Shown here piece by piece: positions 40,006 through 64,000 of a DNA stretch of 64,000 bases (position 1 is its first letter; each line of letters starts with the position of its first letter). The position numbers were made by a program, and so were the translations under genes. The DNA comes from a virus (taxonomy: Duplodnaviria > Caudoviricetes): positions 3,897-67,896 of the IMG/VR virus record IMGVR_UViG_3300037408_000437; one strand, 5' to 3'. Under the pieces are notes generated by a model. That model made no database searches and was not told the origin of the DNA. It was given only the letters and a program-made list of their open reading frames with translations.

Positions 40006-40136
40006 GCGTATTCTCCAAAGAGTGGGCCGGCGCCGCCAGCCCCTCTTACAGTATCTCAAAAGAAATTTCCAAAAAAAGTTGCTTGGGTACGCTATTTGGT
40101 GCTATCCTAAGCATAACTCACTACCTGGACCCGTTT

Positions 40137-40703
40137 ATGCGCGCTACTTACGGCCTTCGCCCCATTCTATCCATGTCCGAAGCTCAACGAGCTAAGTTCT
40201 GGAGCAGGGTAGCTATTACCGAGCCTGATGCCTGTCACAACTGGACCGGCTTCATAAACCCCTGTGGCTACGGACTTTGGTCCGTATACTGGGAAGACAA
40301 CGCTCGGTCGTCCTTTCTCGCCCATCGAATAGCTTACGCACTATCCTACGAAGAGCCGCCCCCCTACAACCGAGGAGATAATTGCGTGATCCACACTTGC
40401 GACAACCCCAGATGCTGCAATCCAAGGCATCTAGTTATCGGCTCTCACAAAGAAAACATGCAAGACTGCACGCAAAAAGGACGCAACTATTTCAAACGCA
40501 TCCCTAGACACGGGTCCAAGAACCCGGCAGCACGTCTCAACGAAGACCAGGTTCGGGCGATCAAAACCCAAATGGCCTCTATCGAACGTGGAGCCGGGCG
40601 GCGGAAAGCCCAAGAGGCCCTCGCCGTTGCCCATAAAGTACGCGTCGGCACCATACGGGCTATTTGCGAAGGGCGTAACTGGGCTCATATCCAAATAGCG
40701 TAA
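40137..40703 (+). CDS. HNH homing endonuclease, antisense to the late operon
   Basis: FWSRV...CHNWTG...AHRIAY...VIHTCDNPRCCNPRHL..GSHKENMQD; start uncertain (40083-40173). Confidence 0.9.
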   Translation: MRATYGLRPILSMSEAQRAKFWSRVAITEPDACHNWTGFINPCGYGLWSVYWEDNARSSFLAHRIAYALSYEEPPPYNRGDNCVIHTCDNPRCCNPRHLVIGSHKENMQDCTQKGRNYFKRIPRHGSKNPAARLNEDQVRAIKTQMASIERGAGRRKAQEALAVAHKVRVGTIRAICEGRNWAHIQIA

Positions 40704-42035: not shown

Positions 42036-42668
42036 TTACTTCTTAGCGCGGATACTTTCCAACGCTACAGTGTGCAATTCGGAAGCAGCTTCTACTGTAC
42101 TGGCGGAACCTAAGTATTTCTTGGTCCCGCGTTCCTTAATATAAGCCTTATATCGCTTCCCTTTTTTCCAGACCCCGACAACACCTGTCGCGGAGTTATA
42201 GACCGGCCTGGCGTTTCCCGCCTGTTGGTACCGATCTGCCCAAACACAGTTATCGGGGCCGTAGCCACGTTCATTATCTACTCGTTCGAGAGTTAACCCC
42301 TCCGGGCGAGGACCCATATCCGCATAGAATTTATCGAAGCTATGCCACTCCGGACAAACTTTTATACCCCGACCCCCGTAATTAGGGTAATTAGGGTCAT
42401 TCGGTTTATTACATCGATCCAGCATATGGTACCACGTCCGATACTCGGGGGTACCCGTCATGCCGTGAGTACGGCTTCTAGCACCTATAACTTGAGTCCG
42501 ATAACATCCACAAGATGTTATCGAACCCCTAGTAAGATGCCCTGTCCTAACTACTTTTGTTTTGCCACACTCACAGCGGCACAACCAAGCAGTTCTAATT
42601 CCTAAGTTCTCAGCTCTCTCCACCACGGTAAGCCGGTCAAATACCTTCCCTACCAAATCAATCTTCAT
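42036..42668 (-). CDS. HNH homing endonuclease with AP2-like C-terminus
   Basis: WLCRCECG, SCGC, YGGRGIKVC, TLERVDN..GY..DNC.WA, C-terminal GV..K...Y.A.I...YLG. Confidence 0.9.
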   Translation of the reverse strand: MKIDLVGKVFDRLTVVERAENLGIRTAWLCRCECGKTKVVRTGHLTRGSITSCGCYRTQVIGARSRTHGMTGTPEYRTWYHMLDRCNKPNDPNYPNYGGRGIKVCPEWHSFDKFYADMGPRPEGLTLERVDNERGYGPDNCVWADRYQQAGNARPVYNSATGVVGVWKKGKRYKAYIKERGTKKYLGSASTVEAASELHTVALESIRAKK

Positions 42669-55221: not shown

Positions 55222-55250
55222 ATTATAAGAGATACCTTGTAGGTTGTAAA
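55222..55250 (-). promoter_or_regulatory. Sigma70 promoter for the leftward operon
   Basis: TTTACA-17 bp-TATAAT. Confidence 0.75.
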
Positions 55251-60802: not shown

Positions 60803-61276
60803 ATGTGGACTGGATTCATGGACATGCACAGCGGTGGCGACACTAAAATAGAGCCATACGAATACATTTTCATAGAAGCCCCAGAAGACGAAGCAAAAGT
60901 AATCTTCTACAACCGCTTCCATCGCAACCCAGAACGGATAACCTGCACGTGCTGTGGTGGGGACTATAGCATTACCACCTACCCCAACCTAGCGCAAGCA
61001 ACAGCCTATGAACGCGGCTGCGCATATGGTTACATAAACGCTAACGGCATTGAAATAACTCCTGATGACTGGTACGCACTGCCCCTTAGGCAACAACATG
61101 AATGGAAAGGCCAATACCTCGAACGTGAAAACTACAGAAACCACAAATACCTAACACTAGAAGAATATATGGAATGCAATGACGTACTGTTTATCCCTGC
61201 TTCGTGCATCGAACCACACGAAAGACAGGGCGAAATTCCATCAGAAGGTTATATATGGATCGAATCAAATGACTGA
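60803..61276 (+). CDS. Conserved phage protein with CxCC motif
   Basis: FMDMHSGG..K.EPYEYIFIEA...RNP.R.TC.CCG.DY; AGGAG RBS. Confidence 0.65.
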   Translation: MWTGFMDMHSGGDTKIEPYEYIFIEAPEDEAKVIFYNRFHRNPERITCTCCGGDYSITTYPNLAQATAYERGCAYGYINANGIEITPDDWYALPLRQQHEWKGQYLERENYRNHKYLTLEEYMECNDVLFIPASCIEPHERQGEIPSEGYIWIESND

Positions 61277-64000
61277 CACGACCTTCATCGATTTCGAAAC
61301 CCATTACACTCAGGACTATAATCTCAAGAAATTAAATTACTACCAATATATACAAGACCATAGATTTAGTATTCTAGGCGCGGCCATTATTCATAACAAC
61401 GAGCCCGCTCAATGGTTAACTGGCCTTGACCTCGCCACACTCCTGGATGAACTACGATACAACCCGCCCGAAGCCGTCGTAGCCCATAATACCCTATTCG
61501 ATGGCCTCATCCTCACCCAGCTCGGCGTCACCACCGAGCTATGGGTAGACACACTCAGCATGGCCAGAGCCCTGTTGCCCCCTGGCACCCCACTAAGCCT
61601 GGATGCCCTGGCCAAACGCTACCACCTGGGCCAGAAACTGGAAGGTCTGCCGATGGGCATAGCCTCGTGGGACGAACTCTCTCCCGAGGCCCAGCGCCGC
61701 CTGAAGGTCTACGCCATTAATGACGTGGAGCTCCTTCAAAAGCTCTATCAAACCCTCGCGCCACAATTCCCAAGCCAGGAGTTTGAATTAATCGACCTAA
61801 CCCTGCGAATGGCATTCAAACCTCATTTGCAACTCAACATGCCATTAGCCCAACAACTCCTAGCATCCGTGGGGGACCGAAAAACCAGACTCATCAATGA
61901 ATCAGGGCTCTCGGAAAAAGTATTATCCTCGAACAAACAGTTCTCTGAGTGGCTCCTAGCAAACAACTATGACGTACCAATGAAGGTTTCCCCGACTACC
62001 GGTAAACAAACTCCGGCCCTCGGCAAATCCGACCAAGCCTTCCTCGATCTTCTCGAAGATAACCCAGAACTCGAACCCGTCATCGAAGCCCGGTTAGCCG
62101 TTAAATCCACTCTGGAAACCACTCGCTTAACCACGCTCATCGAAACTCAGCAACTCATGAGAGGCGTCCCGGTCCCCTTAAAATACTACGGCGGACATAC
62201 TGGTCGCTGGAGTGGATTGTTCTATAACCTTCAAAACTTACCTAAAAAATCCGAAATCCGTAATACCCTGGAAGCCCCAGAAGGAGAAACCCTCATTATC
62301 GTTGATAGCAGCGCCATCGAGGCCCGAGTTCTAGCCTGGCTAACTGGTCAGGAATTTGCCTTGACCGCATACAAAAATAACGAGGACCTCTACAAGGTCA
62401 TGGCGGGTAAAATATATAACAAAGAACCCACCAAAGTAACTAAGGATGAACGCACCTTAGGTAAAATCGCGGTACTTGGATGCCTAGCATCAGATACCCA
62501 AGTATTGACAGATATGGGATGGAAGCCTATAATCGCAGTATCAATTTCCGACAAACTATGGGATGGTGTATCGTGGGTAAGGCACAAAGGCTTGATTTAC
62601 CAGGGTCAACAGACAGTAATAACGCAACACGGCGTAACCATGACCCCCGATCACCTCGTTCTGACGCCCGTAGGTTGGCGCAAATGGGAGGACACCCATA
62701 CAAACCATTCCCTTATGGACTCGGCGACAAAATTGGTGAATTTACCATCAAAGGCTGGGAGCAAAGATTCACCTCTTCGGGCCGCAGTAATGGCTGGCAT
62801 CCAATCGTGGTTTGTTCATGTGGTTGGACCGGCATGGTACTCCGTGAAAACCTTATTAAAGGAAAAACTACCCGTTGTAATACCTGCGCTAAACGTAAAT
62901 CAACAGATACTCGAAAACATTATTGGGGTTATGCGGAAATACTCCCGGATAACAACCACCGAACTCGCCTACTCAACCGACTCTCTTCCTGCATCGGACG
63001 CTGCCATTGCCCAACCAACACATACTACCACCACTATGGAGAGCGAGGAATATCCGTATACCAACCATGGAGAGAAGATCGCGGGACCTTTCTCAACTAC
63101 GTTCAAACGCTTCCTGACTGGGATATCCCAGAATATGAACTGGATCGCATCAACGTGGATGGCAATTACGAACCAGGTAATATCCGATTCGTATCCAAAT
63201 CAACCAACCTTTGTAACAAACGAAAAGTCCCCACACTCCAATATAGAATCACAGAACTCGAACAAGAAAATACCCGTCTACGATCTGAGCTATTGCGGAC
63301 CAAACAACAGATTTACGATCTTGAGCAACAAAGGACCGCTATTAGTACATAATTGCGGCTATGGAATGGGATTCAACAAATTCGTTCTTACCTGTAAAAC
63401 TTACGGAGTGACAATATCCGAAGAACTCGCCCAAACAACCATAGATACTTACCGAGAAACCTATAACCTAGTTCGTAATCTCTGGCGTACCTTCAATTCT
63501 TATATCCAGATAATGACTACCGATTTCGCTGAAAAATCAGGTAAAACCCCGTGGCTTAAATATACCGCACCTAACGAAACCCCGTGGCTTGAATATACCG
63601 CATCTAACGAAACCCTAACAACCCTGATATTCACAACTGAAAAAATTAGATTACCAAATGGACTCGCTCTCCATTATCCTAATCTACACCAAAACAACCA
63701 AGGAGAATATGTTTACGGACTTAAAAACAGCATTAAAAAAGTCTATGGCGCAAAAGTCGTCGAAAACATAGTACAAGCCCTAGCCCGTAACATCATCGCC
63801 AAACAAATGCTAGACGCCTATAAAACGCTACCGGGTACACTCGTACTATCCGTTCACGACGAGATAGTAGTCAGTACAAAAACCCAACACGCCGAATCAG
63901 TTTTACAAGACCTTATAACCATCATGAAAACTCCACCTAATTGGGCCAGCACTTGCCCTCTCGATGCCGAAGGCTCGATCTCCAAATTCTACAAGAAGTA
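61269..64000 (+). CDS. polA: Family A DNA polymerase with 3'-5' exonuclease, intein-containing; runs to the window edge, not in the ORF track
   Basis: My translation: IDFETH, AHNTLFD, YAINDV (exonuclease); HTGRWSG, NLQNLP, DSSAIEARVLAW (motif A), KIAVLG|CGYG (motif B, split by the intein), ENIVQALAR, SVHDEIV (motif C). Confidence 0.95.
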   Translation, partial: MTDTTFIDFETHYTQDYNLKKLNYYQYIQDHRFSILGAAIIHNNEPAQWLTGLDLATLLDELRYNPPEAVVAHNTLFDGLILTQLGVTTELWVDTLSMARALLPPGTPLSLDALAKRYHLGQKLEGLPMGIASWDELSPEAQRRLKVYAINDVELLQKLYQTLAPQFPSQEFELIDLTLRMAFKPHLQLNMPLAQQLLASVGDRKTRLINESGLSEKVLSSNKQFSEWLLANNYDVPMKVSPTTGKQTPALGKSDQAFLDLLEDNPELEPVIEARLAVKSTLETTRLTTLIETQQLMRGVPVPLKYYGGHTGRWSGLFYNLQNLPKKSEIRNTLEAPEGETLIIVDSSAIEARVLAWLTGQEFALTAYKNNEDLYKVMAGKIYNKEPTKVTKDERTLGKIAVLGCLASDTQVLTDMGWKPIIAVSISDKLWDGVSWVRHKGLIYQGQQTVITQHGVTMTPDHLVLTPVGWRKWEDTHTNHSLMDSATKLVNLPSKAGSKDSPLRAAVMAGIQSWFVHVVGPAWYSVKTLLKEKLPVVIPALNVNQQILENIIGVMRKYSRITTTELAYSTDSLPASDAAIAQPTHTTTTMESEEYPYTNHGEKIAGPFSTTFKRFLTGISQNMNWIASTWMAITNQVISDSYPNQPTFVTNEKSPHSNIESQNSNKKIPVYDLSYCGPNNRFTILSNKGPLLVHNCGYGMGFNKFVLTCKTYGVTISEELAQTTIDTYRETYNLVRNLWRTFNSYIQIMTTDFAEKSGKTPWLKYTAPNETPWLEYTASNETLTTLIFTTEKIRLPNGLALHYPNLHQNNQGEYVYGLKNSIKKVYGAKVVENIVQALARNIIAKQMLDAYKTLPGTLVLSVHDEIVVSTKTQHAESVLQDLITIMKTPPNWASTCPLDAEGSISKFYKK
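62481..63353 (+). mobile_element. 291-aa intein in polymerase motif B, with no in-frame endonuclease
   Basis: Block A CLASDTQVLTDMGWKPI, block B TPDHLV, block F VYDLSYCGPNNRF, block G LVHN followed by extein Cys; frame checked stop-free codon by codon. Confidence 0.93.
62684..63352 (+). CDS. HNH homing endonuclease in the -1 frame inside the intein
   Basis: CSCG...C..C, YG.RGISV...W, ELDRINVDGNYEPGNIRFV...N..NKR; ORF open from ATG 62480; AGGT RBS before ATG 62684. Confidence 0.88.
   Translation: MGGHPYKPFPYGLGDKIGEFTIKGWEQRFTSSGRSNGWHPIVVCSCGWTGMVLRENLIKGKTTRCNTCAKRKSTDTRKHYWGYAEILPDNNHRTRLLNRLSSCIGRCHCPTNTYYHHYGERGISVYQPWREDRGTFLNYVQTLPDWDIPEYELDRINVDGNYEPGNIRFVSKSTNLCNKRKVPTLQYRITELEQENTRLRSELLRTKQQIYDLEQQRTAIST
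63544..63614. repeat. 33-bp in-frame tandem duplication in polA
   Basis: AAACCCCGTGGCTT(A/G)AATATACCGCA(C/T)CTAACG x2, encoding TPWLKYTAPNE/TPWLEYTASNE. Confidence 0.95.

Follow-up and report, generated by a model that had tools for sequence, protein, structure and literature searches.

The polymerase gene and its intein

The window (the whole 64,000-nt stretch analyzed here) is the terminal 64 kb of a 67.9-kb phage record of IMG/VR (IMGVR_UViG_3300037408_000437), and positions are counted from its first letter. At its 3′ end lies the gene of a family-A DNA polymerase (PolA), which starts at 61269 and extends to the window end; the identical protein of 910 aa is present in a protein collection (P0003). 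The gene is split by an intein in its own reading frame (frame 0), and the same DNA, read one base earlier (frame −1), contains a nested gene for a protein that resembles homing endonucleases. The coordinates are collected in Table 1.

TABLE 1. Features of the PolA locus in the window (pLDDT, predicted local distance difference test)
Feature	Positions	Strand	Remarks
PolA N-extein	61269–62480	+	3′–5′ exonuclease and polymerase domain up to motif B (...ERTLGKIAVLG); Pfam DNA_pol_A (E 4.9e-29), DNA_pol_A_exo1
Class-1 intein, frame 0, 291 codons	62481–63353	+	Begins with Cys1; TPDH in block B; ends in His-Asn, the following (+1) Cys being part of the extein
N-terminal splicing (HINT) half, intein codons 1–90	62481–62750	+	pLDDT 89–98; Foldseek match to mini-inteins; frame-0 identity 0.49 vs. 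0.26 in frame −1
Sigma-70 consensus TTGACA-17-TATAAT	62505–62533	+	Intein codons 9–18 (VLT...PII); predicted transcription start near 62540
Nested endonuclease-like gene	62558–63352	+	Frame −1; candidate starts ATG 62558, GTG 62573, ATG 62684; conserved core about 62705–63244
Stretch present in two metatranscriptome libraries	62561–62796		Runs X5 and X6: one 234-nt contig each, 0 differences
Frame-0 read-through linker, intein codons 93–254	62757–63242	+	pLDDT 36–47, without secondary structure; 0 stops in 42/42 inteins
C-terminal splicing half, blocks F and G, ...VHN	63258–63353	+	pLDDT 89–97; frame-0 identity 0.56 vs. 0.24 in frame −1
PolA C-extein	63354–64000	+	CGYGMG... to ...KFYKK; the window end cuts off the stop codon

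The nearest polymerase relatives (P0004, P0005, and P0006, with 87%, 84%, and 76% identity and lengths of 603–605 aa) are all intein-free and read ...GKIAVLG-CGYGMG... without interruption; the window polymerase has 291 additional codons between this G and this C. The intein-free junction of the P0004 type is ...GTACTTGGATGCGGCTATGG..., and comparison with E. coli Pol I (RRSAKAINFGLIYG) places the insertion in motif B of the polymerase. The frame-0 intein opens with a Cys codon (62481–62483) and ends as ...VHN/C, with the Asn at 63351–63353, the +1 Cys at 63354–63356, and 291 stop-free codons. An earlier reading of this DNA, made from its letters alone and called here the sequence-only reading, had placed a C...HN/C intein splitting motif B at exactly these coordinates, and the intein-free relatives, in which AVLG is joined to CGYGMG, bear it out.

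The intein has the HINT fold and the sequence features of class 1. Block B (TPDH) occupies residues 55–58 and the terminal HN residues 290–291; across 40 relatives, C1, T55, H58, D268, H290, and N291 are invariant and, at the other nucleophile position, the +1 residue is C or S. The AlphaFold model of the frame-0 intein, computed with the family alignment, is confident (pLDDT at least 89) only at residues 1–90 and 260–291, and Foldseek matches these parts to the gp41-1, DnaB, DnaX, and RecA mini-inteins (probability 1.00, E 4e-4), with the splicing domain of PI-SceI also among the fold matches. Protein splicing is probable, given that the host gene is essential and the catalytic residues are conserved. 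Between the two confident parts, residues 93–254 are predicted with pLDDT below 50 and no secondary structure, and the content in Ser plus Thr is 21%, vs. 13% in the N-extein. A Pfam search of the frame-0 intein gives no match. Two further points of the sequence-only reading, an intein with no endonuclease motif in its own frame and with a Thr/Ser-rich middle, agree with what is found.

The nested reading frame

The −1 frame is open from the ATG at 62480 to the TAA at 63350–63352, as had been read, and encodes 290 aa with no internal stop; it is already open from 62465. The third frame has many stops across the intein. The nested TAA lies in CAT-AAT, the codons of the terminal His and Asn, and only 28 of 42 relatives share this stop; the proposed co-extension of the two frames holds at the 3′ end only. 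At the 5′ end, it is coincidental (an opening at the first base is found in 4/42). When the codons of the nested open reading frame (ORF) are shuffled synonymously, in the window alone, frame 0 stays stop-free in 0.4% of the shuffles (permuted codons) or in 0.045% (extein codon usage); with synonymous shuffles of the intein frame, again in the window alone, the −1 frame stays open in at most 0.005%. The openness of the two frames exceeds chance.

Polymerases of about 890 aa from many metagenomes align with the window protein through the entire intein and, in three of them taken as DNA, the −1 frame is again a complete nuclease-like gene. A profile built from four nested proteins (that of the window and those of three metagenome loci) led to 80 IMG/VR loci. 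A long host ORF with the nested ORF in its −1 frame is present in the 38 best of these 80 loci, in 3 weaker ones, and in 3 further metagenome loci; the search of inteins for an alternative-frame nuclease gene, suggested in the sequence-only reading, thus yields 41 of 80 loci plus the 3 from metagenomes. In these two-frame loci, the host ORFs measure 610–1207 aa (a single copy, interrupted by a stop further upstream, has 492 aa), with 0 stops in the host frame and 3–30 in the third frame. The remaining, more distant profile matches are free-standing genes, in which the equivalent frame has 1–11 stops, one short match of 83 codons excepted. The exceptional copy (L084, IMG/VR 638275545) has its stop upstream of the intein middle, and its near-identical sister (L083) is intact; this polymerase copy may be broken, or the record may contain a sequencing error.

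The junctions are mostly K..LG/C...HN/CGYGMG or other variants of PolA motif B, and a few are elsewhere. The polymerase P0007 contains, at a different position in PolA (VEN/C...HN/C, before QALAR), a second intein similar in length, and in one locus (L101) the family intein sits at a junction resembling that second site (...CEN/C...HN/CCQAVA).

Against 1.84 billion cluster representatives, the frame-0 intein has 2550 matches at E ≤ 1e-3 and, in clusters at 50% identity, 164 at E ≤ 1e-30; the top matches are mostly one stretch spanning intein residues 1–292, and Pfam DNA_pol_A is matched in 9 of 10 sampled hosts. Among isolate phages, 610 records contain a relative of the nested protein. The best isolate matches sit under genes whose annotation is DNA polymerase or intein-containing DNA polymerase (Salmonella Jerseyvirus phages, Vibrio phage 97.13, Pseudomonas phage MR14, and EBPR siphovirus 2), and the isolate genomes with the two-frame layout are mostly those of Salmonella Jerseyvirus. 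The nested ORF is unannotated in the two annotated Jerseyvirus records inspected. At the DNA level, blastn of the window's polymerase region against isolate phages gives no relative, and peptide patterns drawn from the whole polymerase give no close relative in IMG/VR.

Conservation in the two frames

Stops were compared in 42 inteins, and identity, wobble positions, and start columns in 40 non-redundant ones. The mean pairwise identity in the N-splicing part is 0.49 in frame 0, 0.26 in frame −1, and about 0.25 in the third frame, and in the C-splicing part 0.56, 0.24, and about 0.25, respectively. The order is reversed in the nuclease core, with 0.24 in frame 0, 0.49 in frame −1, and about 0.22 in the third frame. 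Variability per codon position likewise peaks at position 3 of frame 0 in the splicing halves (0.62) and at position 3 of frame −1 in the core (0.64). Conservation and wobble position both change frame at intein codons of about 75 and about 260, as would be expected from the frame-specific constraint that the sequence-only reading had proposed to look for. Since the amino acid identity of the frame-0 middle (0.24) is close to that of the non-coding third frame (0.22) and its wobble follows the −1 frame, this middle is constrained only to be stop-free. In the roughly 40 codons between the nested start and the core, there are frame-0 constraints only, and this segment of the nested protein is merely kept open. 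Stops of the −1 frame in the 42 inteins occur only in the first 40 or so codons and from about codon 260 on, with none between.

The frame changes near codons 75 and 260 are also the points at which two compensating indels, by an error of sequencing or assembly, would formally restore an in-frame nuclease domain and thus a conventional intein–HNH fusion, and the source run is not usable as independent support. We consider such an artefact barely credible. Forty non-redundant sequences, drawn from different metagenomes, have the identical layout, and in many isolate phages it underlies the polymerase gene as well; the read-level frameshift error that had been named as a way to refute the layout is therefore not the case. 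An artefact would not require frame 0 to be stop-free across the core, and it is so in every member. There are no indels in the contigs examined and, in a search of weak sensitivity, no long in-frame fusion among 5.8 billion proteins. The comparison confirms that the two-frame layout is real and maintained by purifying selection across many phages.

Start codons and expression signals

In the family, −1-frame stops are frequent at intein codons 4–31 and then nearly vanish (in the third frame, stops persist at many codons beyond this point). An ATG stands at this stop-free boundary, in alignment column 32, in 24/40 sequences. In a second clade, with the pattern VL[C/S]...GWKPIE...VCH, the ATG is at column 34 in 14/14 and is preceded in 11/14 by GGAGG, GGAG, or AGGAG, formed by codons for Gly-Glu-Glu. 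The window has a GTG at column 32 (62573) and an ATG at column 27 (62558). The start at 62684 favored by the sequence-only reading is not the likely one: it falls in column 69, with ATG in 2/40 and GTG in 4/40, which is no family start column, and the family position is at codons 32–34. In column 66 (TTG 62675 in the window), an ATG, GTG, or TTG is present in 38/40.

In all members, the −1 frame is already open 35–45 codons before the conserved core begins and, in the window, from before the intein; the candidate starts of the window have no strong Shine–Dalgarno sequence. These facts would suit a −1 product made by programmed −1 ribosomal frameshifting or by coupled re-initiation, as a fusion of N-extein, N-intein, and nuclease. 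Slippery heptamers of the type X_XXY_YYZ are, however, absent from the window and found in only 4/40 sequences, at differing codons. The open zone begins at conserved ATG codons (column 32, or column 34 mostly behind GGAGG), for which frameshifting would have no need, and a consensus promoter lies just upstream. Frameshifting or re-initiation is thus quite improbable; on the choice between an internal start and a frameshift, which had been left to later work, the conserved ATG columns and the lack of a conserved heptamer point to separate translation from an internal start.

The promoter sequence at 62505–62533 (Table 1) is the only 12/12 match to the sigma-70 consensus in the 64 kb; the sole other near-consensus site, TTTACA-17-TATAAT (11/12), is on the minus strand at 55250. 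In the clade of the window (clade 1, 26 sequences), Leu9 is encoded by TTG in 17/23 (background 0.13), and a T occupies the third position of codon 16 in 17/26, irrespective of the amino acid (background 0.16). Neither bias is seen in the other clade. The contigs of the two metatranscriptome runs (Table 1), which have different study codes, are all that these runs contain of the 2.8-kb stretch 61200–64000, and they are compatible, as a weak hint, with a transcript starting near 62540. Three more RNA runs contain smaller shares of the same stretch. That no RNA contig covers the remaining positions carries no weight either way.

It is possible, with a chance that we place somewhat below even, that the nested gene has its own expression signals set in synonymous sites of the splicing-domain codons, with one solution per clade: a sigma-70 promoter of host type (TTGACn-17-TATnnT) with an ATG or GTG at codon 32 in clade 1, and a GGAGG Shine–Dalgarno sequence with an ATG at codon 34 in clade 2. 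The endonuclease would then be produced with a timing of its own, separate from that of the polymerase message, and about 100 nt would be under a triple constraint (splicing residues, promoter or ribosome-binding site, and second-frame start). That nuclease expression is uncoupled from splicing, as had been proposed, would fit a start codon and a ribosome-binding site or promoter inside the N-splicing-domain codons.

The nested protein

Compared with PHROGs, the −1 product matches families named 'HNH endonuclease' (phrog_374 with E 4.6e-29 over residues 82–250; also phrog_3377 and phrog_2081). The assignment in the sequence-only reading, an HNH of the YG.RGI...DRI...GNY.PGN type, stands as far as the motifs and these labels go; Pfam and NCBIfam give no family match for the product, and a conserved catalytic His is absent. 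Below the cut-off, Pfam gives several coiled-coil-type matches for the tail of the ORF (bZIP, INO80F, and others), which merely reflect the helix overlapping the C-splicing codons and were rejected. Fifty-five distant relatives in IMG/VR are all free-standing genes, mostly of 160–290 aa, and share a plan with the nested protein: G.LTV, a C.C...C..C zinc ribbon, RC.NP, YGGRGI, and DRI(D/N)..(G)NYEPGN.R(W/F)...N..N.R.

The AlphaFold model of the −1 product (with the family alignment) has a mean pLDDT of 92.5. The product is best explained as an N-terminal β domain with a Cys4 zinc ribbon, a YGxRGI...DRI(D/N)...YEPGN core, and a C-terminal coiled-coil helix. Its neighbors among the predicted viral structures of BFVD are phage proteins annotated as HNH, AP2, or 'homing endonuclease' (E down to 1e-21), among them a 247-aa protein of Salmonella phage LPSE1 with 44% identity. 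Foldseek against the PDB gives nothing at E ≤ 0.001, the family profile against PDB sequences only chance matches, and the ESM Atlas only viral clusters that are hypothetical or named 'homing endonuclease family', without a shared Pfam family. The label HNH comes from the PHROG names and from the annotations of structural neighbors, and is unverified.

The same phage has a free-standing paralogue of 210 aa at 42036–42668 (minus strand), which adjoins the capsid gene and belongs to the YGGRGI/(D/E)R(I/V)D..Y.P.N family; it is 28% identical to the nested ORF (E 1.5e-4), and its tail is of AP2 type by eye (Pfam gives no match). This paralogue is a possible kind of donor. The capsid gene has on its opposite side, at 40083–40703 (plus strand), an HNH gene of canonical type, with Pfam matches to zf-His_Me_endon (E 3.3e-6) and HNH_3 (E 3e-5); hhalign of the nested family against it gives no profile match.

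Intein-free alleles and mobility

Run X4, a DNA run that belongs to another study, contains contigs 90%–99% identical to the exteins, with two exact intein-free junctions joining 62480 to 63354: one reads ...CTTGGA/TGCGGC... and the other differs there by three synonymous changes. The same run also contains intein sequence, at a lower depth than the intein-free contigs. These alleles and the intein-free state of the closest relatives amount to a sporadic distribution, as expected of a homing element. Further joints in X4 connect 61699 with 61804, 62431 with 63513, and 63581 with 63774.

The nested protein could also be something other than a nuclease. It could serve in DNA binding or targeting or, in this phage, be an inactive remnant, and the intein would then be kept by descent or through the help of another nuclease. 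We hold this to be unlikely, given the purifying selection on the nested frame over a deep divergence and an ORF core that is intact in 42/42 inteins. The free-standing members are sporadic in the manner of homing-endonuclease genes, one of them beside the capsid gene of this phage, and alleles with and without the intein occur together; relatives are named HNH homing endonucleases, under untested labels, by PHROG and in several UniProt records.

A read-through intein with a nested gene

We favor, with a probability of about 0.8, a non-canonical class-1 intein in PolA motif B with a separately translated nested endonuclease-like gene. Ribosomes reading frame 0 would traverse the whole element while making the polymerase; the 90 or so codons at the start of the intein and the 30 or so at its end would give the HINT splicing domain, and the roughly 165 middle codons a stop-free disordered linker, excised with the intein by protein splicing. 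Read one base earlier, the DNA would be a separate gene for a homing-endonuclease-like protein of about 220–265 aa, translated independently from a start inside the N-splicing-domain codons (codons 32–34 in the family, GTG 62573 or ATG 62558 in the window) and, in the window phage, probably transcribed from its own sigma-70 promoter. The nested product would recognize and cut intein-free polymerase alleles, and repair would copy in the whole intein. As for origin, the sequence-only reading had a free-standing HNH gene invading a mini-intein: the dual coding, and an endonuclease slot filled by a gene of the free-standing type (the sampled distant relatives being all free-standing), are found, and the invasion itself may be the history behind them.

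Several points weigh against this reading. The core of the nested protein has no invariant His, and on the strand where the catalytic His of HNH enzymes would be expected it has an invariant Asp-Arg; HNH enzymes have Asp/His-His at that position. At the family position of the start, the window has a GTG, and no candidate start has a good Shine–Dalgarno sequence. Binomial tests on the synonymous sites of the promoter ignore the relatedness of the sequences (third positions are, however, near saturation). The contigs of the RNA libraries are at a depth of about 3 and may be DNA carry-over.

Relation to known systems

Endonuclease genes in an alternative or antisense frame of inteins were proposed by Gorbalenya (1998), according to its citation in a preprint (bioRxiv 10.64898/2026.09.14.751524), and the concept of inteins with out-of-frame endonucleases was set out in papers of the Gogarten laboratory in 2025–26. 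The layout is called rare in the published accounts. The published actinophage inteins are like that of the window in having a same-strand, out-of-frame homing-endonuclease gene in the endonuclease slot of a phage intein that looks splicing-competent, and an in-frame middle without recognizable structure; their authors propose a free-standing origin of the endonuclease. There are three differences. The nuclease is endonuclease VII-like in the actinophage inteins but of the YGxRGI/DRI..YEPGN PHROG-374 family here; the hosts are actinophage terminase, capsid, ThyX, and Pol III genes, vs. PolA motif B; and the layout is described there as rare, whereas the family of the window has 164 clusters (50% identity, E < 1e-30) and many isolate phages. 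In the cyanobacterial dnaX intein with an out-of-frame LAGLIDADG endonuclease (bioRxiv 10.64898/2026.09.14.751524), the system is cellular, the frame is +2, and the host gene is another one than the phage PolA of the window.

The ShiLan domain of actinophage DNA methylases (PMC11855218) is similar in that the host reads through an insert whose other frame is an HNH gene that starts a few codons into the insert and stops within its final bases. That insert has no splicing domain and stays in the protein, whereas the insert of the window is flanked by clear HINT halves. In the fractured genes, which are split inteins (Dassa et al. 2009, PMC2677866), an endonuclease gene of free-standing type likewise lies in the intein slot, flanked by the N- and C-splicing parts and equipped with expression signals of its own; there the host is split into two ORFs and splicing is in trans, whereas frame 0 is open in the window and splicing would be in cis. 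By analogy, the element looks like the unbroken counterpart of these split inteins. Canonical inteins with an in-frame LAGLIDADG or HNH domain, such as PI-SceI, share the HINT fold, the C...HN/C chemistry, the insertion into a conserved motif, and the logic of homing; their endonuclease is within the intein polypeptide and that of the window is outside it.

Our literature search gave no paper describing this PolA intein family. The element adds one member, with candidate expression signals, to a recently recognized kind of intein and brings no new principle. New here are the exact intein-free alleles, the family-wide start position, the two clade-specific sets of expression signals, and the caveat on the catalytic motif. 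Set against the view in the literature of such inteins as rare curiosities, this is a large PolA family that includes culturable phages. It is suited to ask how a free-standing endonuclease and a mini-intein merge into one mobile unit, how a gene nested inside another gets expressed, and where the limits of double or triple constraint on DNA lie. Annotation pipelines overlook such nested genes, and inteins called 'decaying' or 'mini' may need re-reading in other frames.

A minor observation concerns the C-extein, where a 33-bp tandem duplication (63544–63609, plus strand) has two copies with 2 mismatches, translated as TPWLKYTAPNE/TPWLEYTASNE; at this site, the intein-free polymerase P0004 shows a 10-residue alignment gap.

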